A stretch of 64,000 nucleotides of DNA from Patescibacteria group bacterium (GTDB lineage Bacteria; Patescibacteriota; Gracilibacteria; UBA1369; PNNO01). This document shows, piece by piece, positions 28,754 to 62,241 of this stretch. The stretch covers positions 1-64,000 of the forward strand of contig JBHPIO010000006.1 of the NCBI GenBank assembly GCA_042568575.1, in the 5' to 3' direction. A program made the translations under genes and the position numbers. The stretch's first letter is position 1. The number at the start of each line of letters is the position of its first letter. Below the pieces are notes generated by a model that saw only the letters and a program-made list of their open reading frames with translations, made no database searches and had not been told where the DNA came from.

Positions 28754-28765
28754 TAGGATGTGGAT

Positions 28766-31459: not shown

Positions 31460-31879
31460 ATGGCTGAAGAAACCAAAGAAGAAGTTAAAATCAGCAAGGA
31501 TGCAGAAAAAATCCTCGACTTAGTTGAGAAACTTTCTGTACTCGACCTTGCAAACCTTGTAAAAGCAATGGAAGACAAATTCGGTGTTAGCGCTGCTGCT
31601 CCAGTTATGATGGCTGGCGGAGCTCCTGCTGCTGGAGGCGGAGACGATGCTGGTGGAGACGATGCTGGTGGAAACGTTACTGTTGTTCTTGCTGCTGCAG
31701 GTGGACAAAAAGTTGCTGCTATCAAAGCGGTACGTGAAATCACAGGTCTTGGTCTTAAAGAATCAAAAGACCTTGTAGACGGAGCACCAAAACCAATAAA
31801 AGAAAATGTACCTAAAGAAGAAGGTGAAGAACTTAAGAAAAAACTAGAAGAAGCTGGTTGTACTGTAGAATTCAAATAA
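31460..31879 (+). CDS. rplL: 50S ribosomal protein L7/L12
   Basis: [43 protein letters not shown]. Confidence 0.98.
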
Positions 31880-32083: not shown

Positions 32084-33307
32084 ATGCCGTTATTCAAAAT
32101 AAATAAATCCAAAAAAGCATCAAAGAAACCTGAAGCCAAGCCAGAGGAACAGGAAAACACTTACACAAATATTTTTGAGAAAAAAGAAGAGAAACCTAAA
32201 GAAACAGGTGAAGAAAGCGCAGTAATCTCAGGTGTTTATGCAAAAGAGGAAGAAAAAACTCAAGAAAAAGAGAATGTTCTTGGACCCCTTCCAGAGCTAG
32301 AACAGAAAATTGTTGGAGCTTATGATCCATCGAAACGAAATCTTAAAGTAATTCGAAGTTTATTCATTGGATTAATCGTAGTTTCGCTTTTGGGAATAGG
32401 ATTCTTCTACACAGAGCTAAATCCTGATTTTGATCTATTAAGCAGCGTAAGAGGACCAAATACAACTCAGCAGCTTAATAATTCCAATGCACAAATTGTT
32501 ACGCAACAAACATCAATCAATCAAAAAAACTATCTACTCTTAAACTATTACTTACAAGAATTAAGCTATATTGCCGACAGTTACGGCAAAGCTCGAAGCG
32601 GACAAATCACTCCTCAGGAATTAATAACTCTTCAGGATCAATTTCTTATTACATACGAGAATGCTCTTACAAAATGGAAAGAGCCAATTGCCGTAGCAAA
32701 CATCCCTGTTGCAACTTTTGAAGATGAACTTAAAATTGCACTTCAAGATGAATTGAAGCAACTAAGTAAGGAGACAAAATCACAAACCATACTTGCAGAG
32801 ATAGATAATTACAGATCAACACATCAATTAATTGGAAATCAACGACTGGCAACTTTCTTTTCAAAAGATACGGACGACATAAGAGGCGATCTTCCTCGTG
32901 ATGACACAAAGCTTTATGCGTTAACAGAAGAAATTCTAGACATTCTAAATAATGACTTCAGCACAATTAGCACACTCAAACAAAACCGTATCGAATGGGC
33001 TGAGATAGTTAATGAAATCGAAAAAGTTACAAAAAGCGTTGATACTCTATATAACACTGGATTCTTTGAAGAACTAGGTGGAGTTCAATATGCATCTTAC
33101 GATTTTGACGCAGGCTCAAACGAGATCATCCTTTCAGGAAAAGCAAAACGGGATGACGGAACTACGTTTAGCCTAATCGCAAACCTGATGGACGCTTTAG
33201 AGAAGTCAGAAATGTTTAAAAGTGTTGATAACAGATCCTTCCCAAAAACTGGATCTGAAGATGAAGGATACGTATCACCTTTCCGCATCGAACTTACAAT
33301 TGAATAA
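32084..33307 (+). CDS. PilN-like type IV pilus alignment protein
   Basis: Single TM, coiled coil, C-terminal RIEWAEIVNEIE...IILSGKA...IANLMDALEKSEMFKSV...FRIEL; upstream of pilO/pilB/pilC. Confidence 0.65.
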   Translation: MPLFKINKSKKASKKPEAKPEEQENTYTNIFEKKEEKPKETGEESAVISGVYAKEEEKTQEKENVLGPLPELEQKIVGAYDPSKRNLKVIRSLFIGLIVVSLLGIGFFYTELNPDFDLLSSVRGPNTTQQLNNSNAQIVTQQTSINQKNYLLLNYYLQELSYIADSYGKARSGQITPQELITLQDQFLITYENALTKWKEPIAVANIPVATFEDELKIALQDELKQLSKETKSQTILAEIDNYRSTHQLIGNQRLATFFSKDTDDIRGDLPRDDTKLYALTEEILDILNNDFSTISTLKQNRIEWAEIVNEIEKVTKSVDTLYNTGFFEELGGVQYASYDFDAGSNEIILSGKAKRDDGTTFSLIANLMDALEKSEMFKSVDNRSFPKTGSEDEGYVSPFRIELTIE

Positions 33308-33323
33308 ACTATAACTTACCGAA

Positions 33324-33944
33324 ATGGCTAAATCATTCTACAAATCAAGACAATTCCAGACACGACTTTACGGTGGGCTTTCAATCGTCCTTCTACTAGT
33401 TATTGGGTTCTATTCATATTCAAACGTAATGAAAATGCTTGGAATGCAGGCTGAAATTGATACTCATAATCAACTTCATAGTGCTCTTGCTAATACTGAG
33501 AACAGAATTGATGAGGAGCTTTCAACTGTCAAAGAAGAAAACATTGATCTAAATCAAACTATTCAAGAAGAAAGAGATGTTGTTTTTCCAAAGGGGGAAA
33601 ACCATACTGCTTTAACAAGAACTCTAGAACAATTTGCTAACGATACTCACAGATCAAAAAATCCATTCATGATTAGTAATCTGCAGTATCAGACTCCTAA
33701 AAAATCCGAAAGTGGCGAATATATGATTCTGCCTTTTAAACTTACTATTCACTGTTCATATGAGAATTTCTTTAAGTATCTTGAATATGTAGGGAATAGT
33801 GGAACCTTGAGCGACAAGACCAGGCTTATTGATATTCAACAAATCATTATCAATTTTGTTAGTCCTCAAGGGACGCAGGGCAACATAAGCGGACAAGACG
33901 AAATAAATTTTAATGTGTCTATGCAGGCATATTTCCGATCTTAA
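33324..33944 (+). CDS. PilO-like type IV pilus alignment protein
   Basis: N-terminal TM, coiled coil, LPFKLTIHCSYENFFKYLEYV...RLIDIQQI...MQAYF. Confidence 0.75.
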   Translation: MAKSFYKSRQFQTRLYGGLSIVLLLVIGFYSYSNVMKMLGMQAEIDTHNQLHSALANTENRIDEELSTVKEENIDLNQTIQEERDVVFPKGENHTALTRTLEQFANDTHRSKNPFMISNLQYQTPKKSESGEYMILPFKLTIHCSYENFFKYLEYVGNSGTLSDKTRLIDIQQIIINFVSPQGTQGNISGQDEINFNVSMQAYFRS

Positions 33945-33960
33945 TCATTAAAGAAGTTGT

Positions 33961-35403
33961 ATGCCTTCAGAAAAACTACAACAATTACAGGACGCAATTC
34001 TTGCAGGAAATATACCTCAACTGGTATTAAATACTATTAGTTACGCTTTAGATTCCCGTTCAAGTGATATTCACATTGAGCCTCTTGAGCATACTGTTCG
34101 TGTTAGATACAGAATTGATGGTGTACTTAGACAGATTGTGGAATATCCAACAAATATCCATCCGGCTGTAGCTTCTCGTGTAAAAATCATGTCGAATCTA
34201 AAGATCGACGAACAAAGAATTCCGCAAGATGGAAGAAGTTCTGTTTCTACAAGAGATGGTCGCGAAATGGATCTCCGTATTTCAACACTTCCAACTGTAA
34301 ATGGTGAAAAGATTGTAATGCGTATTCAGGATAAATCACGAAAAATTCCGAATTTGGATAAACTTGGACTTGAAGGAAATAGCTTAAAATTTATCGCCGA
34401 TAGTATTAAGCAGCCAAATGGAATTATTTTGAATACTGGACCTACTGGTTCAGGTAAAACAACAACTCTATACTCGATCTTAAGTGACTTAAATAAGCCG
34501 GAAGTTAACATTTTAACAATTGAAGATCCGGTTGAAATCCAAATGGATGGACTTAACCAGAGTCAGGTACATCCAGATATCAATTACACATTCGCATTTG
34601 GTATGCGTACTGGGCTACGTCAAGACCCAGACATCATAATGGTAGGTGAAATACGTGATAAAGAAACTGTTGATACCGCCATTGAGGCGTCTTTAACAGG
34701 TCATCTAGTATTTTCTACAATTCATACGAATAGTGCCGTTGAAACGCTAACTCGTATTGATAACATGGGAGTTCAGCCGTTTTTAATGGCTTCTTCTATT
34801 GAATGTATTATTGCACAACGACTTGTACGAAAAATTTGTGAACACTGTAGAGTTGAAGAAGAAGTTGATCCACACTTGCTTGAACACGTAAAACTTGTTT
34901 CCGGCAAAATTCATAAAAGTGAAGGAGTTGATCCCGCTTTACTACAAGGATTGAAATTTTATAGAGGTCAGGGATGCGAAAAATGTGACAATGTCGGATA
35001 TTCAGGCCGAGTTGGACTTTACGAAGTAATGAAAATGAATAATGAACTTCGAAGAGCTGTTCTAAAACGAACTAGTGCTCTTGAAATTGAAGATATAGCT
35101 ATTAGAACCGGCATGATAACTCTTGAACAATCCGGAATTATTAAAGCATTAAAAGGAGAAACCAGTTTGAATGAGGTTTATAGAGTAGCAAGAAAAATGG
35201 AAGATGCAGATGTTAGAACAGCCAGTGAACCACCTGCGGAGCAAGCTCCCGCAGAGCCAGAGCCACAGCCAGAACCAGAACCAGAACAAAATCCAGTTAA
35301 TCAATTAATTGCTGAAGCTGGTGTTCCAGGTGAACCTGCTAAGCCAAAACCTCAAGCAGGCGTTCCAGGTGAACCTGCAAATCCCGAACAACCAACAACT
35401 TAA
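33961..35403 (+). CDS. pilB: type IV pilus assembly ATPase (PilB/GspE)
   Basis: SDIHIEP, RYRIDG, GPTGSGKTTT, TIEDPVE, RQDPDIIMVGEIRD, TGHLVFSTIH, two CxxC; no N-terminal N1/MshEN domain. Confidence 0.95.
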   Translation: MPSEKLQQLQDAILAGNIPQLVLNTISYALDSRSSDIHIEPLEHTVRVRYRIDGVLRQIVEYPTNIHPAVASRVKIMSNLKIDEQRIPQDGRSSVSTRDGREMDLRISTLPTVNGEKIVMRIQDKSRKIPNLDKLGLEGNSLKFIADSIKQPNGIILNTGPTGSGKTTTLYSILSDLNKPEVNILTIEDPVEIQMDGLNQSQVHPDINYTFAFGMRTGLRQDPDIIMVGEIRDKETVDTAIEASLTGHLVFSTIHTNSAVETLTRIDNMGVQPFLMASSIECIIAQRLVRKICEHCRVEEEVDPHLLEHVKLVSGKIHKSEGVDPALLQGLKFYRGQGCEKCDNVGYSGRVGLYEVMKMNNELRRAVLKRTSALEIEDIAIRTGMITLEQSGIIKALKGETSLNEVYRVARKMEDADVRTASEPPAEQAPAEPEPQPEPEPEQNPVNQLIAEAGVPGEPAKPKPQAGVPGEPANPEQPTT

Positions 35404-35409
35404 TTCATT

Positions 35410-36672
35410 ATGAAGAAAGCTAAAGAATTTGCACAAAAAACGGCTGGAGAAGTTTTCTCATTAGATACTGCTGAAGATCTTGCAATATCAGAACAGGAAA
35501 AGATCGTTTTGAATATTGGCAGAAGTAAAAAGAAAATCGGCCTTCGCAAAAAAGAAGGTACAGAAAAATCAGGAAATTTTCTCTTGGATACATACAAAAA
35601 GATTAATGATGCGATGATCAACTTAAATAAGGTTAAGTTGCCGACTAAAGCAACCTTTTTCAGGCTTTTAGCTGTTATGGTTGATGCCGGAATTCCTATC
35701 ATAAGATCGCTTCATACACTTGCAGAACAAAACAAAAAAATACCTAAATTTCAAAGGATAATCACTGAAATGGCATATAAAATTGAAGAAGGAGAAAGTC
35801 TTTCAGGTGCTATGGATCAATATCAGGATGTATTTTCCGAAGCTGAAATAGGAATGATTAGAAGTGGTGAAGTTTCTGGTCATTTAAATGATATCCTACG
35901 CAATTTAGCGCATGATACAGAGAAAAACTCGAAGACAGTATCCAAGGTAAAAGGAGCACTTACATATCCAGTAGTGGTTCTTGTTATCCTATTTATAGTT
36001 TTATTTTTGATGATGGTGATGGTTATCCCTCAAATAACTAAATTATTTACTCAAACAGGAAACGCATTACCACTAATCACACAAATTGTTATTAATATTA
36101 GTGATTTCCTTCGTAATAACGTTCTTCTTCTTATTGGAGGTGTCGTTGCGTTTGGAATAGCATTCTCTTTTTGGATTAGAACAAAAATAGGTAAATATTA
36201 TTGGCATGTATTCCTTTTGCATATGCCGATTATTGGCGTACTGGTAAGGAAATCTACACTTGCGCAATTTGCTCGAACTTTGGGAAATTTGCTTGGAAGT
36301 GGTGTCTCAATCATTCAATCAATGAGTATTATTTCCAATGCAATGAATAATGAAGTATATAAACGTAAGATAAAATTCGCTGGAGATGACCTTAGAGGAG
36401 GTATTCCTCTCGCAGAAACACTTCAGAATCCTAAATATTTCCCAATAATGTTCGTAAATATGATTGAAGTTGGGGAACAAACAGCCCAACTTGAGAATGT
36501 TTGTAAAAGACTTTCTGATTTTTATGATGAGCAGGTTGATTTGGCTGTAAAAAGCCTTACAAAAGTCATCGAGCCAATTATTATGATATTTGTAGGTGCG
36601 ACTGTCGGTGGGCTAGTTGCAGCTATTATGCTTCCAATTATGTCTCTTGCTACTGTTGCTGGAGGAATTTAA
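35410..36672 (+). CDS. pilC: type IV pilus platform protein (PilC/GspF)
   Basis: Two T2SSF domains: GESLS, GEVSGHL, ALTYP, VGEQTAQL, IEPIIMI. Confidence 0.93.
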   Translation: MKKAKEFAQKTAGEVFSLDTAEDLAISEQEKIVLNIGRSKKKIGLRKKEGTEKSGNFLLDTYKKINDAMINLNKVKLPTKATFFRLLAVMVDAGIPIIRSLHTLAEQNKKIPKFQRIITEMAYKIEEGESLSGAMDQYQDVFSEAEIGMIRSGEVSGHLNDILRNLAHDTEKNSKTVSKVKGALTYPVVVLVILFIVLFLMMVMVIPQITKLFTQTGNALPLITQIVINISDFLRNNVLLLIGGVVAFGIAFSFWIRTKIGKYYWHVFLLHMPIIGVLVRKSTLAQFARTLGNLLGSGVSIIQSMSIISNAMNNEVYKRKIKFAGDDLRGGIPLAETLQNPKYFPIMFVNMIEVGEQTAQLENVCKRLSDFYDEQVDLAVKSLTKVIEPIIMIFVGATVGGLVAAIMLPIMSLATVAGGI

Positions 36673-36742
36673 TTTACACGGAGTTTTCATTGTTGTATAA
36701 TTGATCAATGAAAAAACTAATAATATAAATAACCAAGCTTCT

Positions 36743-37252
36743 ATGAAACTGAAAAAAGGTTTCACCCTGATCGAATTACTTATTGTAATTGCGATTATCG
36801 GTATCCTCTCCGCAGCGTTGCTTCCAACAATCTTGAACGCACCCGCAAAAGCAAGAGACAGCGCTAGGATTCTTAATATCAGCTCTCTTGCAACAGCAAT
36901 TGAATCATATAACGCTGACCAAGGTGGTTATCCTGCAACAGCAGGTTGTTTGGACGGATCAAACGCGTTTAAAGATGTAGCAGCAGATTACTTCTCTGGT
37001 GGTATATCTGGTATCCCTCTAGATCCTTCTGGGGCAAGAACAGCACTTGCAGGTACAGATGCTGTGTCAGTATGTGCTAAAGCAGGAAATTATTATTATA
37101 CTCCTGTAGCAAGCACTTATGGACAGTATGCAATTTCAGCAGCTATGGAATTAGCCCAAAACAATAATTCTGGAGCAGCTCCTGCGGCAACTGGAGACCC
37201 TATTACAGCATGTGCTGCAAGTGGATGTATTGTATTCATACAAGTTCAGTAG
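36743..37252 (+). CDS. type IV prepilin (major pilin candidate)
   Basis: MKLKKG|FTLIELLIVIAIIGIL class III signal, KARDSAR, Cys pairs. Confidence 0.95.
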   Translation: MKLKKGFTLIELLIVIAIIGILSAALLPTILNAPAKARDSARILNISSLATAIESYNADQGGYPATAGCLDGSNAFKDVAADYFSGGISGIPLDPSGARTALAGTDAVSVCAKAGNYYYTPVASTYGQYAISAAMELAQNNNSGAAPAATGDPITACAASGCIVFIQVQ

Positions 37253-37271
37253 AGAAATCACACATTTAATT

Positions 37272-37312
37272 AGCCGGTTTATCGCTGCAAGCAGCCTTAA
37301 TCCGGCTTTTTT
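37272..37312 (+). terminator. terminator after the pilin gene
   Basis: AGCCGG...CCGGCT followed by a T-run. Confidence 0.55.
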
Positions 37313-37429
37313 GATAATGATTCCTAAATAACACAACATTTCCATTGTTTTGCAGCTCATCAGAGCTGTCTTTTTTGGCTTTTTTATGCTAAAATATATA
37401 GATATTTAAGAACGTGTAAAGAGACAAAA

Positions 37430-40400
37430 ATGGCAAAAAAATACAAAAACAAAATTTCGAAGCTAATCGCGGGACTATTAATTCCGGTAATACTTGGCGT
37501 TCAACTCTTAAACGTCCCTATTGCAAGCGCGCAATTTGGAAACAATCAACCAAGCGAACCAACAGAAGTAACTTCACTAATAGCTGTTCTAGTTCAAGAC
37601 AGCCTTCTTGAAGACAACCAACAATACCCAGGGCTAACATCCGACTACGCTGGATACCTGGATGAATTAACTCTTCGCGATCGTATTTACAGATATGCAA
37701 GAGACGCACAACTGTCTCAACCATTTACTCGTTCTGTTATCTTACGCGTTTCAGAAAATCAAAGTCCTGTGGAAATTTCACAGGCACTTGAAACTCTATA
37801 TTTTAAAGGCGACGGAAAAGATGAGCTTCCAAGTCAGCTCGATGGAGTAATTGTTGTTGGAGATGTTCCTCTTCCTGTCGTAAATAAAAATGGATATCGA
37901 TTTGTGAGCTTATTTCCATATACAGATTTTGAAGAAAAGGCATATATCTACAATGCACGTTCAAATGAATTCGAAAGAAATGAAGATATACTCTTCCCAA
38001 GAGTTGAAAGCTGGCATGGAGTAATCAATCCACCAGAACTTGAAGTAGACACAGCCAGTGCACTTGCTGGCTACTTTGATAAGAATCACTTGTTCCACAT
38101 CGGCCACGAAGATTTCATTAACGATGATGCGCCTGACCTATTGCAATGCCCAACTGCTGGACTAGATTGTTACAAATATAACCGCAAACTTTTATTTGCC
38201 GATATTTACTGGGAACAGGAATTGATAGATAAAGATTCATTGCCAAGATACGAGAACTACACAAAGTACCTGGAAGATATTTCATATATGAGATTCACCA
38301 AGACTTTCTTGCGAGAACTTGCAGGTGTTGGTGGCGAAGGAGAAGGCGACGGCCTTGATGATGATCTTGATGGATTTATAGACGAAGATCTTGAAAATGG
38401 CATCGACGATGATGGCGATGGACTGATTGATGAAGATGCCGGAACTAATCCTGAGAATCTTGATGAAGAAACGGCAGCACTTTTTGATACTCTGCCAGAT
38501 GTTCTTTCTAGGAACATTATTCTTTCATACGCAATGAAGTATCCTGAACTACTTAGAAACTACATTCAAACTTCAAACGATCTTGTTGAGGGAATTAGTC
38601 GATACAATGAATACGACTCCCCTGTTGCTTTGATCGCAATTAAAGATTTGCATGCGCAGGAGTATTTACGAAAGGTCAATGATGCTCTTGAAAAAAGAGT
38701 AGATGAAATAGTTGATGAGCTGCAAGATCCAATTCCTATAATTGAAGAAGCAGAGATTACTGGAGAAATTACATTCGAGAATAATAATACAGCGAGCCTA
38801 TCAACATATAATTTTACTAATTATTCAAAGAAGCTATATAACGATCCTGATTTAGGAGTTCGTGATGTTGTCTACTTTAACGGAAAATCAGCACTTGAAC
38901 TTGAAACCGCACAGGAATGTACGCTTTTCAGAGGTAGCAATGCTACAGATGACTTGGTTGGACAGGTTATTGAGGCAAATCGTGTCTATCATCGAGAAAC
39001 CGCTGACTCCAGTGTAGACAATACAGGATACTCCACTTGTTTTGGAGAAAACACAGATACACCCGAGCGTTGTTTCCCAGAAAAAGCCGAAAAAGATTTG
39101 TTTGATTTAATGGGGACTCACATTCGCGAAGATGTTCCAGACAGCGCATTAACATATGCAGGCTGTTACGACTTTAGAGAGGAAGCAAGATTTAATCAGT
39201 ACATGCTAGAAGTTAATGGATATCTTCTTGCCTTGGCTACCGCGCTTACGGAAGAAGAGAAAGATTTAATTGCTCTTCCTGGTGATAAGCATTTGCCGGC
39301 AGAAGACATAGTTTTATATACAAATCCAAATATCACATTAAAAGACCTTCTGGATCTTTACGGAGGTTATGATGTTAAAGACAATGATGGTGACGGCGAA
39401 ATCGATGAAGCTGATGAATACTCATTAAGTTATCGAATTGACGATGATGACTGGTATTCAATTGGTCGCGATATTCTTGGGAATAGAAAAACTCATTTTA
39501 TTATTGATGATCCTCCATTTCTTGGAATTAAACAGATTGATATCACAATCAATCAAATAAAAGGTGTGGAACTTAAACCAGCTGACGCAACTCATGCTTT
39601 TCCGTATATCGGAGTTTCTGAGGTTCCAAGTATCACATATCACAAAGAACCTACACTTGAAACAATACAACAGCAGCTTGAAGCTGGTTTTATAGATGCA
39701 CTCCCTGCGGACAATCCAAGGTATGTTGCGTTCCAGGATCAGGACGGCAAATTGCAAAAGATAATTTATCCAAATACTTTTAAAAGCACTTCAGGCGAAG
39801 ACTTCGTGCAGTCTCTAGTAGATCTTGAGGAGTACCTAGTAAATCTCCCTGGTGCAGACCCAACTGATATTGAAGGAAAACTAGCAGAAGTTATCGAGGA
39901 AGAAGAAAACTTGTATGAAGATATTGAAGAGAACGTGCTGCTATACACTTCACAAGGAATGGTGACTGAAGCGGTTGATTGGATTAATCTTTCAATTGAT
40001 AAAAAACATGCATACGCGATCAGCGCATATATGGATCGCGACACCGATGCATTTATTGGAGACGAAGATGTTGATTATGAATACTTATACTTTGTTTCTG
40101 ACGGAAAGGCCGACGAGATAGAGTTTGCGGTAAATAAAGATGCTCAAGTAGTGGACAGAGATTCTGAATGGTTAGATCCCGAAGCACAACTTGACCCAGA
40201 AGCTGCAGAAGAAGAGGAAGAGTCGGGTGGAGGTGAAGCTATTAACTTCCTTGTATGGCTGCCTTACTTAGTTGAATACCTCGATGAACTTGCGAGCCTA
40301 ACAAGTGCAAGCGGCTTTACTGCTTCTTGTGGAGAATTCGGTGGTGGAAGTAACCTAGGAGACTTCTTACTTGGACTTGATAGCGATGGTGACGGAATCC

Positions 40401-43400
40401 TTGATAGCGAAGATGCGAATCCAAACAGTATTGATGCTGATGGAGATGGTGTACCGGATGGAGCCGAGGCAACATCTGTAATTCAATTAACATTCCAAGA
40501 TGGAGCAAGCACTGTTCCTTTTGATTCAACAGATAGTTACACAGTTACGGCAACTGCACTTGATGCATTTGGAGATAGAGTTCTAACAGATTCATTTACT
40601 CAGGTAGCATTTGATATTGTTCAGCCAGAAATTGGACAACGTGCAGAGTTAGCAGGCGCAGACACTTTAAACCTTGTCGCAGGACAAGCAGTCTTCTCAA
40701 TAAGGCCTACGGGCACTCCTGGAGACTTCTCGCTTATAGGACATACTACAAACAGACCAACAACTATAGTTTCGAATACACTGGTGATAACAAGCGACGA
40801 AAAGAGCGTTCGTATATTAACTTACAAAATGGAAGTAGTTGAGCCGCCTACATATACTCAAGAGGTTCTACAAAATTATATTGTTAAAGATGAGAATGGA
40901 AACGATATTGCTGAAATTGATTCGGACACAGGAAAGATTATGATTAAAGATAGTGCGTACGAGACAGAAGTATTCGAGTCTCTACCTTCGAGGCCAATGA
41001 GAATAGGGATTATTGAGATTCAATCAGGAAACATTATTGCCAGCGTTGTGATTATTTCAAATGAGATCGCAACACCTGAGATCCATGAAAGTTCGTATAG
41101 TTTTGAAGACAATGCACTGCAGCTTGAAGGACTTCATGTAAAAGATGTAAGCAACAGCCCTTATATTCAAGCATATGCACAGGAGAGTACTGGCGATTCC
41201 CCTGCTCCGGTTTATATTCTTGAAAACAGTGGAATCTTTTCTAAACGAATTGCGAAGCTAACTCCGGAAGGAAAAGTATTTGTTGCAGATGAATATTTCA
41301 TTCAAATAAAAAACGGAAACGATACTAAAGCGCCTTATATTTTTGAGATAGTAGATTCTAATGGCGCAAAGCTTATTGAGTTTTATATCGGATATGGCCA
41401 GGGCAGCCTTGAAATCCTTGAGGAAACAGATCAGCTCGAAGAGTTCAATCTGATTAGTTCGGCAATTAAATACTTATTTCCGAAAGCGTTTGCCCAAAGC
41501 AGCCTTACAGATGATACAGACAATGATGGCCTAACTGATATCGAAGAACTCTTTATCGGAACTGACCGTATTATTTCTGATAGTGACGCTGATGGATTTG
41601 ATGATGGTGAGGAAATCCAGGCAGGTTACGACCCAATAAGGAAAGATGCAGAGCTATTTACTGATCTTCCAAAAGATCATCCAGCGCACGATGCATTTAT
41701 GCAGCTACTGCTTAGAGGAACTATTTCACGAACTGATGACGGGAAGATTAGACCAGATGATTTAATTACACGTGAAGAGTACGTTCAAATGGTACTTGGA
41801 ATTACTTGTGTTAATTGCTGGTCGTTCTCGGATCAAACAAAACAGAATGTTCAAAATACTTATAATTCGAGTCCATTCCCGGATACAGATATTTCAGAAA
41901 CATATTTATACTGTGTTGAAGAGTCAAAGAATCAGGGAATTGTTAGCGGATATGCAGAAGGTGCAGATGCTGGGTACTTTAAGCCTACATATGAGATAAG
42001 CCGTGCGGAAGCAATTAAGGTTATTCTTGAAGCGGCTGAACTAGACAGCTCGACATATTACGATGCTAGCAAACCGTGGTACTACCATTACGCATTAAAG
42101 GCTCAGGAAGAAAATATTTTCCCTGAACAAACAAGCGAGCAACTACTTGCAGTCACTTATGCTTCAACGGATGACTTTAAAGTGTGGGTGGACAATCAAC
42201 TATTAACGACAAACAATTTCTTCGAACAATGGATGATGGCGTCTGTAACGAGATCTGAATTTGCATTAATGGTTCGAAATGTAGTTGAAACATTCGATTG
42301 CTACAACGAAGACAAAGATGGCGATGGCCTTCCAGATAATCTTGAGTTGTATCAATACAATACTGCAGCAGACAATCCGGATACTGACGGCGGTGGTCTT
42401 GATGACTTATCCGAAGTTCTTGAAGGAAAAGATCCTTTTAATCCTGATGACGATTTAATTTACGATAGCGACAAGGACGGCATGACAGATGAGTGGGAAG
42501 AAACTTACGAACTTGATCCTTTTGATCCTGCAGATGCATATTTTGATGACGACTTGGATGGCTTAATTAATCTGCATGAATACGAACGTGACACAAATCC
42601 ACTTGATCCAGATACTGACGATGGAGGCATTTCCGATGGCGACGAAGTGTGGCTACAGTCTACTGATCCTTTAGATGGATCTGACGACATTGGAGATTTC
42701 TTACTTGAAGCAGGTGTCTATGCAGTAGGAGCAAACATAGAAAGGGATGTTGTTTTTGAGACTATAGTCGCAGGCGAGGAAGAAGAAGTTCCTGTCTATA
42801 TCGACAATATGCCGGCAGACGGAGAGTCAACTTTATTTCTTACGGCAGAGATTGTTGATGGCAATGGCGACATTATTACAAGTGACAACAGTAGCGTAGT
42901 TGAATTTATTATTCGATCTACGTCGACAACTAATTCAGAAATTGAACAGACAAAGGTTCGAGTAAATGAAGGTGTTGCTATTACGCAAGTTACTTCAAAC
43001 ATTAAAGCAGGACTTGTGGACATTGATGCAAGAATTCTCAACAATGAGCATCCCGTTGAAATCCACAATGTCTATATTGAACCTCTTGAGCCAGTTGAGA
43101 TGGAGGTTGTTGCGGCTTCACCTGTAATCAAGACAGGTGGACTTTCTAAGACACCTCTTGCAATTAGTCTATATGACGAACATGGAAACATAACTAACAA
43201 TGACTTCTTTGAAGTTACAGTAAAGACAGAGGGGCCTGGTGAACTTGATAAGTCTGTGGACACAAACCCAGATCAAGAAGGAATCCAGTTGCAATCATAT
43301 GAAGGCGTGTTTAATGTCGACCTTTATTCAACCGATGTTGAAGGAGAGGTTGATGTAACTGCTAGTCTCGCGAAAGATGTTGAAAACTATGAAACAGAGG

Positions 43401-46400: not shown

Positions 46401-49400
46401 ACGATGCGCCTGACGATCTTAAAGACGTGCATGACAACCTTACGAAAGAAGATGAAGATGGTGACGGCATTCCAAATAGCTGGGATGAAGTGAGCGGAGC
46501 AATCGATGCAGTTAGCGACAAAGTAATTGATGTGCTTGGAGAAATGTCATGTGGTGGTGGAAGCGGTGGCCTTCCTATCCCAATAAACTTTGCATTTTTC
46601 GCACCTGGACCAATAAACGCAATGGGAATACCAGTTGGAACCGATCCTGGACTTCCTGTATTTGGATGGGGGGCGCCTTCAACAATTCCTATATGGCCGC
46701 CGACACCGTACCAATCTACAACCGGAGGAAGACTTTACATAGTTCCTACATTAACTGGCAAACTTGCGACAGCAGTGTGTCTCGGCCCATACATGGGCGG
46801 ATCTTGCTGGGCATTTGTAATTCCAGACATCCCAGGCTTCCCACCTTCATCTGGCGGCGGCGTTGCCGATACAGAAAGCTACTGTGAAGTCATTACAGAG
46901 TCCTCTGCGAGCTCAATGATAAAAGCAGCTAACTTTGTAAGCTCACCAAGTTCAGGCAGTGTATTGATCAATGGACAAGGTCTTACGTCATCGAACATTC
47001 CTCAAGATAGTGATATAGGTCATTCTTTAAGACCTGAGAACGGTGGACTCACTGGAAGCTCATCTCTCGGAAGCTACAGCGTGAACATATCAGCGAAAAC
47101 TAATGTTAAGATACCTGGATTCGTAAATGTAATCACAGCATGGTTTGCAAAACAGCAGGAAGAAGTTGTTACAAAGCTTTCAGACCTTCCTGATTTGTAT
47201 GTTCTATATCCAAATCCAGAGTCTATTGTTAATCCTATACCGCCAGAACCAAAATTCAAAAACTTCACCGATGTTCTTACATACGTAAACAAATTACCAC
47301 TTGTAGATCTTGAATCTCGTTCAGTAGTCATTAAAATTCCGGCAATCAGTCAAAGTGAAATTAAAAAGATGCAAAATGAATTAAAGAATTGGGTAGTTGC
47401 AGCAAAGGCTGAACTTAAACGCGCTAAAGCAGTATGGGAATGTGATAAGAAATCAGGACAGAAAACGATCTGCGACAAACTTGTTGTGGATGTTGGCGGA
47501 CTAATTCAAAAAGTTGAGAAAAATATCAAAAGACTTGAAGAATACAAAAAACTCCCACGAAAGATTCTTGAATGGAGGAATGTACACATGAAGTACATTT
47601 ACCAAGTAATCTGTTATCTTGATACGATAATTCAATACATGGGTGGATACATCAAGAAGCAGGAAGTTCGAATAAAAGAATGGATTGATCTGGTTAAGCA
47701 AATTAGGGAGACGCTTAAGTCGTGGAGTATGGCCGCCAATCTTATGGTCGACTACATGAAGTGTGATTCGTGTAAGACGGAAAGAAACTCACTCATATCG
47801 CTTCTAATGAACTTTATGGTGGTTATTCCAGAGCTGCCTGTCATACCGATGCCAAAATGGCCTGACTTCTATTTTGACTTCTCACAGATTAAGCTCGGGT
47901 TAAAAATCATTTGGCCAGATGTGAAGTTTAAAGCAGAGCAAGTAATCTTTCCAAGCATTCCAACGCTTACAATTCCGGATGTGCCAACTTTAACGGTTAA
48001 GTTAGATCTAGAAATACCAGAATTACCAGCACTTCCTCAATTGCCAGAACTGCCGGATTTACCTCCGTTACCTCTGCCAACATTACCGGATATACCAAAA
48101 CCACCAAAGATTCCAAATATCCTTTCACCGCTCAAAATAACACTTGGCGCGATGTCAAAGATTGTTAAAATACTTTGTTTACTTAAAAAAGGACTAATCC
48201 CTGTGAATGAGTCATATCTAAAAACTCATATTGAATCGTTAACTGCACGTCCTCTTAAAGCGACTTTGCCTTTGGACTTCATATTCAAGTTCCAAACACC
48301 AAACATAAGTATACCGTTTGTTGAAAAGATTAAAGTAACTACAAAAGTTGACTTCAGCCTCGAGACTGAACAAATCTACAATGCTGCAAATGATGTAGCG
48401 AAGGTATGGAACAGTTTAGCCACAGATCTTGTTGAGGCAACAAATAAAGGAATAGACATTGTTGAGGATGCAGCTGGTTCGCTAGCAAATCCAGAGATAC
48501 CGCAAGGAAGCATCAACTTAGACTTATCAACATATCTTCAAGAAGAGGTCGACAGTACGTACGCTCTTCTTATTGAACAATCCGAGAAACAGCAAGAGTA
48601 TATTGATTCACTTCCTGATTCATATCATCTAGTCGCAGAGCAAACTTATGTAAGCCCAGATCATTCGAGTCTTCATCAAGACATCGATGAAATCAAAGCG
48701 CGTATTGCAAGCGAGGACTTACCAGAGTCAGTTCAACAAAATAATTTAACAGCACTTCGAAATGCAATGGTTGCATTTGTTGACGATGAAAACAGCAAAG
48801 CAAGCATTGTTGAACAAAGCGAAAGCTACGATAACATTGTCTACTTAGCAAACAATTATCCTTCTCTAAGTGACTACGTTAACAAGGACGTTCTTGTAGC
48901 AAGCACAGATCCAACTCCTCTTCCTTCTGTTGAAAGCGAAGAAGTACAAGGATTTAGTGAAGTAGAAGAAATGGCGAGACTAATTGCAATCAATACTGAT
49001 GCCGTATCATCTAATCTTGTTGATCCTGATGAAGCAATGAATCCATCTATTGGACAATTTGTGGAGGGGCTATTTGTCTACAATGCAGACACTTCAATAA
49101 ACGAAAAAATACTAATGTACAAAGGCGAGCAAGATCTTGAGCACAATGGAGCATTTATGGACATAGACGAAGACAACGACGAAGACATCATTTACTCGTA
49201 TGGTGGCAATGTCTATCTAAAAGAAAACTACACAAACCCGAAATCGAGTAAATACTCAAAATACAGCGCCAAGAGTCCTGACGTTTATAACTTATCAGAA
49301 TTTGCACCATTCAGTCCGTCTGTTAACGGATATGAAACTAATTATGAATCTGGCACAGAAACAGACTTTGACTGGACAGCAGACTACTCGTCTCAAACTG

Positions 49401-52400
49401 CCGGCTACGAAATTGTCTACAAAGATAGCTTACAAGATTTTGATAAGCCATATGCAACACCATCGCATAAAATTAATATCTTCGAGAAACCTGAAACATT
49501 CACAACAATCGGACGAGTACGCGAAGACATTGAAATAACAGTAATCGAAGGAACATTTACAGTAAACGACGAAACTACTTCGTTATACACATTTGGCGAC
49601 ACAATAGAAACCGGCGGCGAATCAAATACTCAAGTTATTATTACATTCTCTGATAGTAGTCAGATAGTTCTTGGAGCCAACACTTCAATAACTTTGCCGG
49701 AATATGTTCCTGGCAACTTAACAGTAACAGTTCACAAAGGAAACCCTGTATTCAGAAGTAACTTCTTCACAAACCTATTCCTGCAAGAAGGATCTGGCGT
49801 TGTAACAGAAGATGGAGAGGCTACTCTTGAATATAAAAATGGCGACAAAGTGACAGTACAACCAGACACCGTATTCTTCGGTTCATTCACCGAAGAAGGA
49901 TACGCATACATTGAACAAGCAGATGGAGATGCAGTAATCACAGCAATCCCAAGAACAATTGTCGACCAATTCTCATCAACACAGATTGTCCAGACAGGAC
50001 AAGTTATTCACACAATGGAAGATTCAACTCTTGTCATCAGACCTGAAGAAGAAAGCAGGCAAATCCTTGAGTTAAGTGCAAACACAATACTGCCAATTCC
50101 TCAAAGTTATGCATCAAGTCTTGAACTAAATGTCATGACAGGAAAGGTAGAAATAATGACACCAAACACTGACCGTATCGAGAATATTCCACTTGAGAAA
50201 GGCATGTTCGTACAATTCGAAGACAAAATCTCAGTATCTAGCGGACAGGTTATTGTTAAATATTCGTTCGGTCCTCAGACATATTTAAATACAGGAGACA
50301 CATTAACTCTTAAAGAATTAATAGATCCAGACAATCCGTTCTTCACATTAGACACTGGTGTCGAGAACTATTACTCACAAACATATACATTCAATAATAG
50401 TGGATACAGAAGCAACCCTTCCGAAGTTGAATTATTCGCTCCACAACTTTGCTCAGACAAAGATGTGCCATTCGCAGAAGCAGGTCCATCATCAAAGCAG
50501 GTAATTATATTCCAGGAACTTGAAATAGATGCTTCAAAATCGTTCGATACATCAGGCGAAATAGTCGGATACTATCTGGATACAGATCCTTCCGAAGATT
50601 CGGATGGTGATGATGATCCTGAAAATGATGTTGATATAGCAAACCAGGATCCTCTTGATCCAGTGTTTAAACTTGGACCTTTTGAAGAAACAGGAACTAA
50701 GCAGGTTGTGCTAAATGTTGTTGATGAATCAGAAAACATTGGTAAGCAAATCATAGACATTGAAATTATTGTTCCTCAAATTACATTAAACAAATCATCT
50801 GATCATGAAGAAGAAGTCACTGGATACATTGATCCTGCGGCAGAAGGCATCCCAATTCACCTTGTAAGAAACAGGGATGGAGTAATCAAACAAATTATAT
50901 CTGAATCCGCGGATGAGTTCGGACAATACTTCACTGATGAAAATGGAGAGTTTATAATTGCAGATCTTGAATATGAAGACACAATCCTATTACGAAACTC
51001 AGATGGCAACATAATTGCAGAAATTGACGACACAACTGGACGCATCGTAATTGTCGACAACAGGTACTATGTAGACGTCCTCGAGGCAACACCACCAAAC
51101 CTACCGACACGAGTAGTAGTCAAAGAAAAAGCAACAGACATCATAATGTTGACACTCCTAATGATCCCCGATTTAAACACAGATGTAAGCATTGACCAGA
51201 CAGACACTGTCTACACAACTGAGACAATCACAGACTACGAAGGTGTCCATCTAAAAGATACAAACAATATCGACACTTTTGAAATCACGCCTCTACCTGC
51301 ATCCGATCCAAACTTCACAGGTGCAGCAGAAATCCGTGAGACAACAACTGACTCAAGAATCTCAATTGTCGACTCAGGTGGAAATATCTACTTTTTTAAC
51401 GAACATCTTGACTTAAGACTTAAACAAGCAGCAACTCCTGACGAGCCAATCCTAATAGAAATGCTCTACGACACTAATGTTATTTCGGAAATTTATATAG
51501 CCGTTAATAACGGTCGACTTGCGGAAATCACAAACAGAAAAGCACTAAACATGCCTCCAGAAAGCGACATTGTTTCTGACCAGGATAAAGATGGTATGCC
51601 TGACTGGTTCGAATTCAAATATGGATTTGATGCACAAAACCCTGGAGATGCCTCTGGAGATGCAGATGGAGATGGACTATCTAACCTTGAAGAATCGAGG
51701 CTTGGAACTAATCCACTTGATCCAGACAGTGACGGCGACGGCTTTACCGATAGCGAAGAAGTCGCTTACGGCAAAGATCCAACAGAAAAAGCTTCATCAC
51801 CGTTTGTTGATGTATCTGCGGAGCATCCATATTACGACAGCATAGTGAACCTATCGCAAAGAAATATCCTAAGAGGAACATTGCAAGACGGAGACCTGTA
51901 CTTCAACCCGGATTCATTTATTGCAAGGCAAGACTTTACAGATATCATCCTAAAAATGCTTTGTATTGTTCCAAGATCAGAAAGCTACAAAGAGCCTCCC
52001 TTATTCTCGGATATGCCATTCACGCAGGCAACAGAGCTCGGCCAAGACTACTACTACCCAGTAGTAAAAGAAGCAGTCCTCCAAGGCTTCATCACAGGTT
52101 ACATCGGCGAAGTAGACGAAGAACTTGGCCTCGCTCCATTCAAACCACTAAACACAATCTCACGTGCAGAAGCCGCAAAGATCGTGCTAGAAGCACTTGA
52201 ACACCAAAAAATCATAACTCTTAGAGACGTACAACAGGCAGAAGACGAAGCGTGGTACGAACCTTACATGAGGCTCGCTACAGACATAACACCAACACTA
52301 CTTGAAGAAAGCGCAGTGAAACAAACATATATCCTAACACCAGAAGAAGCTGCAGATCCGAACGCATCAATAACTCGTGCGGAATTCGTTGCCCTTGCAG

Positions 52401-53020: not shown

Positions 53021-53026
53021 TAAACC

Positions 53027-53608
53027 ATGAATATACTCACACACAAAAAATCGATAATGAAACTCGGAATAGGTGCAGTCCTAATAGCATCTATTATGGC
53101 TTCGTGGCTTGTATTCGCGACGTCACTGCATGCAGCGGATCCAGAGCCAAACGAAAAGGATGTTAAGTGTACTCTCGAAATGAAACCTTTCATCAAAACT
53201 GAAGGTGATAAATTTAGAACATACTTACAGGCACACTTTAAGAACAAGAGTAAGAACTCAAGCCTTCTTGATCTAGCTTTAAAGCGTTTTGAGATCTACA
53301 AACAGACACTTTGGAACAAGGCTCAAAATTACTATCCACAATCAGGACTTCCGGTTCTTTCCGAATCCACAGATGCACTCCAGTGCATAAAACTGGTAAA
53401 AAATGACATCAACATATCAGAAGAGCTACTCAAACAATATTTCTTAGAAACATCTGATATCAAAACAACATCGATACTTATGACAAAACTCGAAAAGATA
53501 AACAAAAAATTGGATGGTCTTAACAGACAAGTAATACAAATGCTCGGCAAGTGGGAAACACTTAAAGACCGCATACCATGTTTCACTGGTAAATGTATCT
53601 CAGGTTAA
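53027..53608 (+). CDS. secreted helical hypothetical protein, C-terminal Cys pair
   Basis: Signal peptide (SLHA); ends PCFTGKCISG; 6 bp after the giant gene. Confidence 0.75.
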   Translation: MNILTHKKSIMKLGIGAVLIASIMASWLVFATSLHAADPEPNEKDVKCTLEMKPFIKTEGDKFRTYLQAHFKNKSKNSSLLDLALKRFEIYKQTLWNKAQNYYPQSGLPVLSESTDALQCIKLVKNDINISEELLKQYFLETSDIKTTSILMTKLEKINKKLDGLNRQVIQMLGKWETLKDRIPCFTGKCISG

Positions 53609-53617
53609 CAACTTCTT

Positions 53618-54250
53618 ATGATATATGTAAAAAAATCGAAAATCTGGCTGGCTCTTACTATCGTCTTCTTTATCGTCTTTAACACGATATCTATAGAAAG
53701 CCTCTATGCGGAAGCGACAAGTAACCCATACAACAACAATAAATTGACGTTCTACGAACTTCAAAAGCTATATCATACTCGGATAAATGATTTATTTAAT
53801 GCGAAGACAAAGTTACTTGAGAAGGGTGAGAAAGGGCCTGGAACAGGTGTAATCCCGCAAGGTGACGAATGTGAAGAGAAAAACTACAGCACTTTCTGTT
53901 TAGCGACTACTGCAGCGAAAGAATACCAAAATTACGAGATTGCACTTGAAAGCCGCAAAAGCAAAATAGAATTCACGGGTGAAAACATTTCAGTAACGCT
54001 CGAAAAAGCGACTACAACAGCAATAAGTCAGGCAGCCGAAATCAATAACGAGCTTGTGGCAGCGAAAAGAGCGCTCGACACATCTGTCAAAACATACAAC
54101 GAGCTAAGTGTTGCATACACCATGCACTTACAATACGAAGAAGTAATCAAAAGCTTAACCAAATATAAAAACAAACTTTCCGAATACTACGAACAAGTTG
54201 GAACTTATCCAAACAAGTTTGTCGATGCAACTTCACTCTCATGCTTATAA
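53618..54250 (+). CDS. secreted helical hypothetical protein
   Basis: Signal peptide (SLYA); CEEKNYSTFC; ends SLSCL. Confidence 0.75.
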   Translation: MIYVKKSKIWLALTIVFFIVFNTISIESLYAEATSNPYNNNKLTFYELQKLYHTRINDLFNAKTKLLEKGEKGPGTGVIPQGDECEEKNYSTFCLATTAAKEYQNYEIALESRKSKIEFTGENISVTLEKATTTAISQAAEINNELVAAKRALDTSVKTYNELSVAYTMHLQYEEVIKSLTKYKNKLSEYYEQVGTYPNKFVDATSLSCL

Positions 54251-54251
54251 T

Positions 54252-55790
54252 ATGAAAAAAACACTCCTCAACATATCGGTAATCTCTCTTGCATTAGCCC
54301 TTCTATGGACTGGATTGTTTGCTGGAACAATCAATGTTACTCATGCAGCAGATTCAGATAAAAGAGCAATCGATGAGGTAATTGAGGAAGCAAAAGCGAA
54401 AAAGAACAAGTTCCTCGCTCACGACATGTACTTGAATATTTATGTTGAAGTAAACGACAAGCCGGAAAAGAAAGCTACAAAAGCTGCTGCAAGCAAACTC
54501 GGAATGAGTGAAGATCAAGTAAGTAGTGTCGCTAAACAAGGAGATCTATCTTCTTTATACGAAAGTTCAAAGACACTAGACAAAACACATCAACAATACA
54601 TTAAAGTCCTAGACTCATATAATAAAGCGTTGGCAACAGAAAGCCTACGTACAGAACTCGAACAAGCAGTTAAACCAAGTGAAATCTTTGCCGATGGCGA
54701 CACGTCAAACTCAGACTTCGACTTAATCCATGACCTGTCTATCATAGAAGAGATTTTGTTTAATGAAAAATCAAAAAGCGACTTCGGTGGAACCTTCAAC
54801 TCGCCATCTGTCGACACGACAGATTCGGGCGAACAAGAAGAACTTGCCGACCTATTTGATGATCCAAGCCTTCTCCCAGATGAAGAAGGTGATGACGAAG
54901 CTCCAAAGGAAGATGATGAAGGCCTTGAGCCATTAGAATGTTTTGAAGGAGACGATGCTCTTACAAATTCCCTACAAGACTTTGAAGACGAACAGGCTAC
55001 GCAAGCAGAAGCAGGAGCCGGCGAAGGCGAGGAAGATCCTTTTGGTGACGAAACAACAGAAGAGGAAGAATTCCCTAAAGCACCTGAAGACGAATGGTCT
55101 TTAGATGACTTGTGTCCAGATGGCGCTCCATTCTGCATAGACATTGAATTCATCATGAAGAAAGCTTCAATTGGGCCGTTTAAAGGATCCAAGAGTGATT
55201 GTGTTGAATGCACAGTACAAAAGATCAACAAAGCATTTGACGACACACTCGCAAAACCGCTTTCAGCAAATAAAGTTACCGGAAACGTACTTGAAGTAGC
55301 TAAATGTAAAAAGAGCCTCACTGTACTTCCAGCAAATATGAAGATCACAACGGTTGCAGTAGCAGTTCCTCAGTCTACCAACTTGTTTGCACCTTCAAGT
55401 ATTGGTGAAGAATGGAAGAAGTTTAATGAAAGAACAAATCCATTGTGGTATCAGAAAACAGATAAAGCCGCTGCAGAAGACCTTAAAAAGGAAGATCCGT
55501 CGCAAGAAGATCGAGCTGCAAGAAAAGGTATAACCACTGCAGGACCTGGTGCAACACTCGATGATGTTCAGCAGCGCACTCAAAATATTGTGAAAAGCCA
55601 AAAAGATCAGGCAGATAAAGATGCAGACCTCGCAAAACAACAGGAAACTGCAGAAAAACAGAATCGTCATTATTCAAACCTTCTACGTGAAATAACTACA
55701 ATGAACCTTCATTTCCAGAGCATGAAAGAAACATTCGAAAAAATGAAGACACCATGTAGCGAACTAGCTAACAAATCCAAATGCAAATAA
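54252..55790 (+). CDS. secreted hypothetical protein with acidic linker and Cys pairs
   Basis: Start ATG 54252, signal peptide (VTHA); FADGDTSNSDFDLIHDL; CPDGAPFC, CVEC; ends PCSELANKSKCK. Confidence 0.78.
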   Translation: MKKTLLNISVISLALALLWTGLFAGTINVTHAADSDKRAIDEVIEEAKAKKNKFLAHDMYLNIYVEVNDKPEKKATKAAASKLGMSEDQVSSVAKQGDLSSLYESSKTLDKTHQQYIKVLDSYNKALATESLRTELEQAVKPSEIFADGDTSNSDFDLIHDLSIIEEILFNEKSKSDFGGTFNSPSVDTTDSGEQEELADLFDDPSLLPDEEGDDEAPKEDDEGLEPLECFEGDDALTNSLQDFEDEQATQAEAGAGEGEEDPFGDETTEEEEFPKAPEDEWSLDDLCPDGAPFCIDIEFIMKKASIGPFKGSKSDCVECTVQKINKAFDDTLAKPLSANKVTGNVLEVAKCKKSLTVLPANMKITTVAVAVPQSTNLFAPSSIGEEWKKFNERTNPLWYQKTDKAAAEDLKKEDPSQEDRAARKGITTAGPGATLDDVQQRTQNIVKSQKDQADKDADLAKQQETAEKQNRHYSNLLREITTMNLHFQSMKETFEKMKTPCSELANKSKCK

Positions 55791-55792
55791 TC

Positions 55793-56812
55793 ATGAAAAC
55801 AATTAAGAAGATAATCGTAACACTTACACTAATAAGTGTAATAACTACCGCTGCACCTATTGCAAACGCGCAAAATACAGGTAAAGAGCTGTTTTGTCAG
55901 CGTGACTGGGCATCGTTTATATCGTCGGTTATCTCTTACGACAGCTTTTCCGAATACTGGAAAGATATGTTCTACAGATACAACAAAAACATCTGCTACT
56001 ACACTGATATCGACAATATTCTCCAACAAGTCGAAAAAGCCCAAGAGCAAATAAGAAATGCTTTCTATACCTGCGATGCAGCGCGTGCCACACAGTTAAA
56101 GACCAGATATTATGAACTTGAAGCGGAACTCTTCTTCCTACGTAATTTCGTTGATATTTCAAAGAGCGAAATCAAAACAGTCCCTGATAAAAAGATCCAC
56201 GAAGCTCTTCGCGGCAATTTCGTAATAGGCAAATCATACTTCACAGAAGAAAGATCAACTGAATTGTTCGAGCAATTTAAACAAAAGTACGGAAAACGTG
56301 TGGCAACTACATATAAAGAATGTAGCGACCCAGGGCTAGAAGCACTCACAAAGAAATTTAAGGATCTTAAGAAAAGCTTCCAAAACATGGCCAGCGGCAA
56401 AACAGGAACCTCATTAAAGGATTACTGGAACAAAAGTCTAAACACTCCAGTGAAGCGAACAGGCAATTTCCTTGGTGGAGTTTTGGATGCACGGATAAAT
56501 GGACTCCCACCAAAGGAGGCAGTCGATAATATTTACAAGGAAGTGCAAAAAAGTCTACCACCAGACACACCGCCAACACTGAATGCGGTTCAAAATGCCA
56601 TCGCAAAAGAAGAAGATGACTATGCCGCGAAGCTTGAAAAAGCATCATTATTGGCGGAATATGAAGCACTATATAAGAACGGAACTGACTCAATGGCCAA
56701 AGATTTCGAAGCGAAACTGAAGCAATTAGATTCAATAATCAAGGGTACATACCCTGCATTTAACTCACTCATCGAGTGCTCGAAAAAGGCTAAGGATAAA
56801 CAATGCAAGTAA
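55793..56812 (+). CDS. secreted helical hypothetical protein with Cys pairs
   Basis: Start ATG 55793, signal peptide (IANA|Q); ends ECSKKAKDKQCK. Confidence 0.78.
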   Translation: MKTIKKIIVTLTLISVITTAAPIANAQNTGKELFCQRDWASFISSVISYDSFSEYWKDMFYRYNKNICYYTDIDNILQQVEKAQEQIRNAFYTCDAARATQLKTRYYELEAELFFLRNFVDISKSEIKTVPDKKIHEALRGNFVIGKSYFTEERSTELFEQFKQKYGKRVATTYKECSDPGLEALTKKFKDLKKSFQNMASGKTGTSLKDYWNKSLNTPVKRTGNFLGGVLDARINGLPPKEAVDNIYKEVQKSLPPDTPPTLNAVQNAIAKEEDDYAAKLEKASLLAEYEALYKNGTDSMAKDFEAKLKQLDSIIKGTYPAFNSLIECSKKAKDKQCK

Positions 56813-61243: not shown

Positions 61244-61328
61244 TCGAAAAGCCCTTTATATAAATTAAACTACACCATGAAAAAGTGCAGCTATCAAAAT
61301 ATCATAATTTTAGCCAGTTGGCAACTAT

Positions 61329-62177: not shown

Positions 62178-62241
62178 GATTCAATTATTACATCATATGA
62201 TTATACCATATTTTGTAGCAATTGACTAACATGAAATGTGC

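Follow-up and report, generated by a model that had tools for sequence, protein, structure and literature searches.

A giant secreted protein and four small cysteine-terminated proteins as a candidate envelope module of the Gracilibacteria

How Patescibacteria cling to their hosts and draw food from them is not settled, and the available portions of papers on Gracilibacteria and Absconditabacteria list only pili and unnamed giant proteins. The DNA analysed here (the window: the first 64,000 nucleotides of contig JBHPIO010000006.1 of GenBank assembly GCA_042568575.1, our contig C28 of a 1.2-Mb genome with genetic code 11) raises this question for a single locus, in which a block of type IV pilus genes is followed by the genes for a giant secreted protein, here called G, and for four small secreted proteins, A, B, C and D. 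An earlier note on this DNA had proposed that G is an SLH-anchored, calcium-stabilised scaffold on which the four disulfide-bonded helical proteins assemble into a contact structure working with the pilus. Does the locus encode such an apparatus, and which of its parts are conserved? Our answer is that the core of G and A to D may form a five-part envelope module of most Gracilibacteria, likely a disulfide-locked helical stalk with a predicted role in contact with host or prey, a reading for and against which we see the chances as balanced.

The open reading frames (ORFs) lie where the earlier note had placed them, and the gaps across G-A-B-C-D amount to 6, 9, 1 and 2 base pairs (bp) with the chosen starts. 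The signal-like N-termini were confirmed by a hydropathy heuristic, which is not SignalP: each of the five proteins has a basic N-terminus and one hydrophobic stretch, and no transmembrane-like window follows this stretch in A to D. A cysteine (Cys) is indeed located within the last four residues of each of A, B, C and D. In the following, a Cys is given by chain and residue number (for instance, A185), and the residues of C and D are counted from the ATGs at positions 54252 and 55793.

Distribution and gene order

The module consisting of the core of G and A to D is class-wide and without a published description; none was found in a literature search, with subscription journals mostly outside its reach. 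Using the core of the window as query, 39 of 41 relatives were matched. Of 301 genomes sampled from the class, 221 gave a profile match to the core (E ≤ 1e-8), 194 to C (E ≤ 1e-3) and 192 to B (E ≤ 1e-4), and each of the three was present in all 45 genomes of the taxonomic order of the window (hereafter, the own order). With these profiles, core, B and C were all not found in the families f24 (0/11), f156 (0/7), f157 (0/1) and f144 (0/1). A sample of 301 genomes from the phylum contained 12 that matched the core profile, all listed under the same class, and about 282 genomes of other classes gave no match with this query.

The family f20 yielded few matches by profile (core in 4/44, B in 7/44 and C in 0/44 genomes). 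In all five f20 genomes picked by weak matches, the core is part of a protein of 805–1060 amino acids (aa) and A comes next; in the four of them where B was found, it stands after A together with a C-sized Cys-rich gene. Judged by these matches, the module extends to f20, though shortened and diverged. Moreover, a C query from the TGA-recoding family f150 retrieved a protein labelled Candidatus (Ca.) Vampirococcus lugosii by NCBI (E 1e-27; E 6e-13 against the C profile), a homologue of C in an epibiotic predator. The close relatives of D in NCBI carry the labels Patescibacteria and Ca. Gracilibacteria and are all named 'hypothetical protein'.

The linkage of the four small genes to the giant gene, for which the earlier note had suggested a synteny check, is conserved. 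There are 62 own-order loci, of which 55 are scorable, and the order G-A-B-C-D occurs in 51 of these 55; because the loci came from genomes with a prior match, such counts describe linkage given presence. The exceptions are a locus without a called A (L015), one in which D was found with a deeper profile (L034), one with a doubtful C-D join (L033) and one with A-B-C 48 kb away (L030). The apparent C-D fusion in L033, of 1069 aa, was not used as evidence because it still contains the end of the D signal peptide and, about 30 residues past the junction, a stretch of N. Single genomes, a same-genus relative included, have C (or D) as two separate ORFs (L031:8705-10246, L119, L132), through either assembly error or decay.

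The order G-A-B-C-(D) is also kept in many other families. In f150, G is followed by an A-sized and a D-sized Cys-rich gene and then by B and C. A-B-C stand apart from G in f146, as do B-C in f22, and in some genomes C has a D-sized Cys-rich neighbour away from G. B is still present in all ten genomes picked from families with a scattered operon. It might be argued that the five genes are functionally unrelated and stay together because gene order changes slowly in this group. Indeed, the housekeeping neighbours are syntenic within the order, with rplJ at a distance of up to 9 kb in 15/23 own-order loci and uvrA after the module in 20/28 loci with enough DNA. However, the order of the module persists in distant families with other neighbours and another genetic code, and the Cys co-variation between the proteins (see below) also speaks against this explanation, which we regard as extremely improbable.

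Some neighbours of displaced genes were recorded as well. In f22 (L057:10821-15621, L070:4235-9116), B, C and a gene for a 150-aa Cys protein are located two genes past a polysaccharide pyruvyl transferase gene (PF04230); SLH motifs usually bind a pyruvylated polymer of the wall. An orphan B follows a HerA/DUF87-type ATPase gene in three TGA-recoding genomes, identified by PF01935 in L171:2-2166 and by sequence likeness in L174 and L179. C and a D-sized neighbour stand after a ClpB/ClpC-type ATPase gene in L053 and, as judged by size and N-terminal likeness, in L052, L055, L063, L064 and L065.

Terminal cysteines of the small proteins

Co-variation of Cys between chains carries the case for a complex. 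Of 70 loci, 48 have both A185 and C511, and the other 22 have neither (70/70 concordant). C502 and D329 are concordant in 63/64 loci, and the lone mismatch, in L038, is an artefact of the distance rule, as the Cys is in the aligned column. A190 and D338 are concordant in 58/61 loci, with a single joint loss. Pairs on the same chain are discordant: C502 and C511 agree in 35/79 loci, and A185 and A190 in 48/75. On two trees, A185 and C511 undergo five changes each, with five joint changes, and among the inter-protein features, 6520 for A185 and 5298 for C502, the partner Cys comes first in each case. Only four to five independent events are behind each of the pairs A185-C511 and C502-D329. When the contrasts were pooled, eight agreed and none opposed, for which a sign test by hand gives about 0.008 with pairs that were chosen after looking.

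Because the inter-chain pairs co-vary and the same-chain pairs do not, the terminal Cys are read as links between chains, and the pattern suggests the interchain disulfides A185-C511 and C502-D329. This co-variation, strong but with few independent events, supports a likely complex of the small proteins. Of the disulfide-bonded helical partners of the earlier note, a complex thus appears likely, but the bonds look interchain rather than intrachain. B209 tracks B94 and also C352, via one clade-level change. In two loci of the family f13 (L016, L019), the C-terminal Cys are lost from A, C and D together and B retains its own, a potential natural test of assembly in the absence of these disulfides.

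As the earlier note had stated, the four proteins belong to no assignable family: none of A to D reaches a Pfam or NCBIfam cut-off, and against the PDB sequences there was no match below E 0.002, the best being a designed coiled coil. A and B are likely paralogues (hhalign 93.6%, 115 columns). For A and D, hhalign gives a 72-column N-terminal match (88%) in a region that includes signal-adjacent sequence, and the comparisons B-C, B-D, C-D and A-C were not significant. That the core might be a paralogue too, the fifth of the set, was rejected, with hhalign values of 8.6% against A, 0.4% against C and 0.8% against D.

All four small proteins have a long amphipathic helix at the C-terminal end, followed by cysteines. 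In the model of C, an N-terminal helical bundle, acidic linkers and a Cys-rich middle precede a C-terminal helix of 71 residues, which matches only single coiled-coil helices, as expected of a helix without its partner. The fold search with C gave no Foldseek match at E ≤ 0.001; the best Z score was 6.5 (83 aligned residues, root-mean-square deviation (rmsd) 3.0), again to single helices. An Atlas search with B, the model of which has a predicted local distance difference test (pLDDT) value of 0.40, provided no usable match. A prediction of four chains together (A 40-193, B 36-210, D 27-339, C 280-512) scored 0.14 against a mark of 0.32 and weighs neither way.

Fibrinogen and laminin are hetero-coiled coils ringed by disulfides. 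The small proteins resemble them in being distinct, partly paralogous chains with predicted terminal interchain disulfides at the ends of long helices; they differ in being bacterial and in having four or five chain types, and no relation in sequence or fold was found. If the prediction is true, a covalent hetero-oligomer of four secreted chains would be unusual in bacteria.

Secreted, helical, paralogous subunits encoded in one operon are also known from multi-component alpha pore-forming toxins such as ClyA, YaxAB and Nhe/Hbl, and VirB5 is a part of the type IV secretion system (T4SS). The module could accordingly be a penetration or feeding device, in which paralogous helical subunits form a ClyA/YaxAB-like or VirB5-like pore or conduit that opens the host envelope. 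It is present in a predator lineage, and VirB6 homologues are reported absent in Gracilibacteria, with other T4SS parts mostly unlinked, in the accessible part of one study (PMC12102498), so that another contact device may be needed. However, a hydropathy scan detected no hydrophobic segment conserved in A to D (0/75, 1/82, 9/79 and 1/97 homologues, respectively), and only 24/81 cores have one. Because conserved hydrophobic segments, such as the tongue of the toxins, were not seen, a pore or conduit is disfavoured. The models of core and C gave only generic helical matches, and YaxB appears only as a generic 75-residue hairpin (Z 7.3) tied with many unrelated proteins. A to D have no Pfam, NCBIfam or PDB-sequence match to VirB5/TraN-type proteins. 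Profile comparisons, and fold comparisons with the core and C, gave no match above background to the toxins or to VirB5, and VirB4 and VirB6 genes are not linked to the module. In the part of the Ca. Vampirococcus lugosii study that was available, no bridges between Vampirococcus and its host were seen (PMC8080830). A pore or conduit is quite unlikely.

The giant protein, the pilus genes and possible roles

The most widely kept regions of G are two unannotated ones. When eight giants were tiled against G of the window, the core tile was retained in 8/8 and the N-terminal tile in 7/8. In the core model (81 sequences in the alignment, pLDDT 77, predicted template modelling score 0.56), a beta domain braced by Cys is combined with long helices (about 140 residues), long strands and an arm of polyproline. 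No Foldseek match was obtained for it at E ≤ 0.001, and the best VIA Z score, 7.5 (75 aligned residues, rmsd 3.2), belongs to generic hairpins. Core and C may still have a known fold, because each model is longer than 400 residues and only a single helical part per model was tested well. The N-terminal domain showed an Atlas feature match of 0.91 to a cluster with 14% PF01364 (peptidase C25). Peptidase C25 has a catalytic His-Cys pair after the first subdomain. Because none of 37 homologues has a Pfam match and no conserved Cys is found among the invariant or near-invariant columns of alignment A11, the domain is read as non-catalytic, and the match may point to a peptidase C25-like fold, namely to its non-catalytic half.

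The length of G ranges from 1000 to 7900 aa between lineages. The largest frames holding the core, of 7874 and 6555 aa, are found in f146 (G338:C6 and G361:C1), and in f22 genes for proteins of 1763-1803 aa lie directly upstream of G (L092, L093). The giant size is optional because f20 has the core in a much shorter protein. With SLH motifs at the Pfam cut-off in two regions, G of the window resembles the SLH-anchored surface proteins of Gram-positive bacteria, but these motifs are not general to the G family: they were not detected in the giants of f150 or f22 or in the short f20 form, all of which retain the core. From the domain content of these lineages, SLH motifs, Ig domains and giant size are optional decorations, and the conserved part is the core with A to D. 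In G of the window, the SLH motifs and TSP3-type acidic repeats fit the SLH-anchored, calcium-stabilised giant of the earlier note, but they are not the conserved element.

Of the pilus block, PilB, PilC and the pilin are firmly assigned by profile. The names PilN and PilO, which the earlier note had also used, are positional, because the 407-aa protein has no family match and PilO reaches only E 0.042. In own-order loci, pilB and pilC occur at most 9 kb upstream of G in 22/23 cases and a pilin at most 2.6 kb upstream in 23/23, being directly adjacent in 19. The pilin remains with G where the block is inverted, moved or split (L084, L088, L108). In other orders, the block is upstream of G in 0/14 loci, one of which has a lone PilB-like gene. 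The link of the pilin to G is suggestive, not class-wide.

The tip complex of type IV pili is composed of the PilY1/PilC adhesin and the minor pilins FimU-PilVWX, and one large adhesin-like protein with four small partners beside pilus genes is similar in outline. G and A to D could thus be a tip or accessory adhesin complex of the adjacent pilus, for which the linkage within the order speaks. However, this linkage is confined to one order in which rplJ and uvrA are syntenic too, the prepilin motif (N_methyl/TIGR02532) matches the pilin but none of A to D, a terminator-like hairpin precedes G, and SLH anchoring would pin G to the wall. Such a tip complex is unlikely, and the pilus genes next door are probably those of another envelope system that the module does not require. 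The cooperation with the pilus assumed in the earlier note is weakly supported: the block is kept in the order of the window but not outside it, and PilB and PilC each have three homologues in the genome.

How might the module work? Once exported by Sec, A, C and D would very probably bundle outside the membrane through their long amphipathic C-terminal helices and be stapled by A185-C511 and C502-D329, perhaps also by A190-D338. B, as a paralogue of A, would probably join them. Gene order and co-retention make it fairly plausible that the bundle docks on the helical and polyproline core of G. The domain families suggest that SLH motifs tie G to the wall in the lineage of the window, and that Ig, FG-GAP, DUF11 and acidic calcium-binding repeats extend and stiffen it. 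Lineages exchange these decorations, as one would expect for the part of an adhesin that sets host specificity. The job of the module is the least certain point: domain types and lifestyle point to host or prey attachment, for which we see slightly less than an even chance.

Giant proteins have been reported from the same class. In the parts of the studies that were available, Ca. Vampirococcus lugosii is described to have giant membrane proteins of up to 4163 aa with DUF11/integrin domains, proposed for host fixation (PMC8080830), BD1-5 Gracilibacteria to have proteins with S-layer domains as well as a single large invasin-domain protein (PMC6851277), and VCBS-repeat proteins were detected in Gracilibacteria proteomes (PMC11452946). 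These giants are like G in being very large and secreted, in having DUF11, integrin/FG-GAP, invasin and S-layer domains and in their proposed role in attachment. They differ in that the available text describes them by known domains only, with no conserved core, partner genes or complex, and the likeness of the 4163-aa protein to G is one of domain types. The accessible portions of a preprint (bioRxiv 10.1101/2023.11.21.568195) do not mention Gracilibacteria or Peregrinibacteria, and those of PMC10849945 do not discuss the locus.

The main rival explanation holds that the same complex is a housekeeping envelope structure, such as a surface coat, a wall scaffold or a glue between stacked daughter cells, with no direct host contact. 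It would account for the single copy, the near-universal presence in the class, the SLH motifs and the position of the f22 B-C pair near a polysaccharide pyruvyl transferase gene. By contrast, the invasin-type Ig, FG-GAP and DUF11 domains and the variation of G from 1000 to 7900 aa are typical of adhesins, and a five-gene set in which each subunit, the giant included, is encoded once does not resemble an S-layer that forms a lattice. In the available part of PMC8080830, Vampirococcus is described as forming stalks whose surface is fibrous, in line with a housekeeping role. We consider this role somewhat unlikely.

Several points weigh against a disulfide-locked contact module as proposed here. 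The Cys pairs were picked after looking at the data, and the contrasts on supported branches are few (4/4, 3/4 and 1/1), none being significant alone (p 0.125, 0.25 and 1). The pair A190-D338 amounts to one joint loss, with three mismatches in 61 loci. No core Cys tracks a Cys of the small proteins (the best, G319-C502, in 58/69 loci and with no contrast support), and for this reason the link of A to D with G is genomic only. The loci were drawn from genomes with a prior core or C match, and the class-wide profile searches were those with core, B and C, leaving out A and D. In the families f158, f163 and f161, the genes for G, B and C are dispersed, with no A seen next to any of them. Finally, single copy and class-wide retention fit a housekeeping envelope role equally well.

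A bolder version of the contact module is doubtful: an ancestral host-contact organelle of the class Gracilibacteria, cultured predators included, in which four Sec-exported, disulfide-stapled helical chains would sit on a core of new fold and swappable adhesive arms of 0-7000 residues would set the host range. It would be a bacterial surface machine of a new kind and would replace the T4SS, which serves other Patescibacteria and seems incomplete in Gracilibacteria. Five class-wide genes with residue-level predictions are now available, and the module may serve as a marker when the interface with the host is studied in cultures of Vampirococcus and Absconditicoccus.

Features of the window

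The positions of the pilus genes, of the five genes of the module and of the regions of G are collected in Table 1.

Table 1. Positions of the pilus genes and of the module in the window
Feature	Position	Strand	Remarks
PilN-like membrane protein, 407 aa	32084..33307	+	Name by position only; no Pfam/NCBIfam match; orthologue upstream of pilB in most own-order loci
PilO-like protein, 206 aa	33324..33944	+	PF04350 E 0.042, below cut-off
PilB-type assembly ATPase (PilB/T2SSE)	33961..35403	+	PF00437 E 1.3e-127; one of three in genome
PilC platform protein (PilC/T2SSF)	35410..36672	+	PF00482 E 3.7e-60; one of three in genome
Promoter-like site (11/12) ahead of pilin	36673-36701		Consensus match
Type IV pilin	36743..37252	+	PF07963 (N_methyl), TIGR02532
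Terminator-like hairpin in the 177-bp pilin-G gap	37352..37369	+	Consensus match only; 2 found vs 0.8 expected in shuffles
G, secreted giant protein, 5196 aa	37430..53020	+	Single copy; longest ORF of genome
Conserved N-terminal domain of G	37565..38314	+	Alignment A11
First SLH motif region of G, aa 1410-1451	41657..41782	+	PF00395 E 8.4e-10
Ig-like (Big_1/invasin-type) domains of G	43469..44053	+	PF02369, PF09134, PF18565
FG-GAP repeats of G, then DUF11 domain	45158..45343	+	PF13517 E 7e-10, PF01345
Class-wide conserved core of G, aa 3030-3700 (~670 residues)	46517..48529	+	
Second SLH motif region of G, TSP3-type acidic repeats on its flanks	51800..51937	+	PF00395 E 6.6e-7, PF18884 E 1.6e-19
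A, secreted helical protein, 193 aa	53027..53608	+	Likely paralogue of B; Cys185 at 53579-53581
B, secreted helical protein, 210 aa, three cysteines	53618..54250	+	773 clusters at 50% identity
C, secreted protein, 512 aa from ATG	54252..55790	+	Cys502 at 55755-55757, Cys511 at 55782-55784
D, secreted helical protein, 339 aa (343 from second ATG at 55781)	55793..56812	+	Cys329 at 56777-56779

In addition to the regions listed, G contains a weak FecR-like stretch. Downstream of the module, the window encodes an HTH_17 protein (57159-57470, minus strand), followed by uvrA, a PrsW protease gene and recF (58352-63312, minus strand). Upstream, two ORFs of 552 and 128 aa between miaA and rplJ (28760-30418 and 28367-28753, plus strand) have no Pfam or NCBIfam match above cut-off. 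After rplJ, no ATG ORF of the size of rplL is listed in the window; relatives have one of about 135 aa, and 31460-31879 is a candidate. Elsewhere in the genome (G000), tandem ORFs of 2000-3300 aa are located at C26:66886-82834 and C29:27091-40324.

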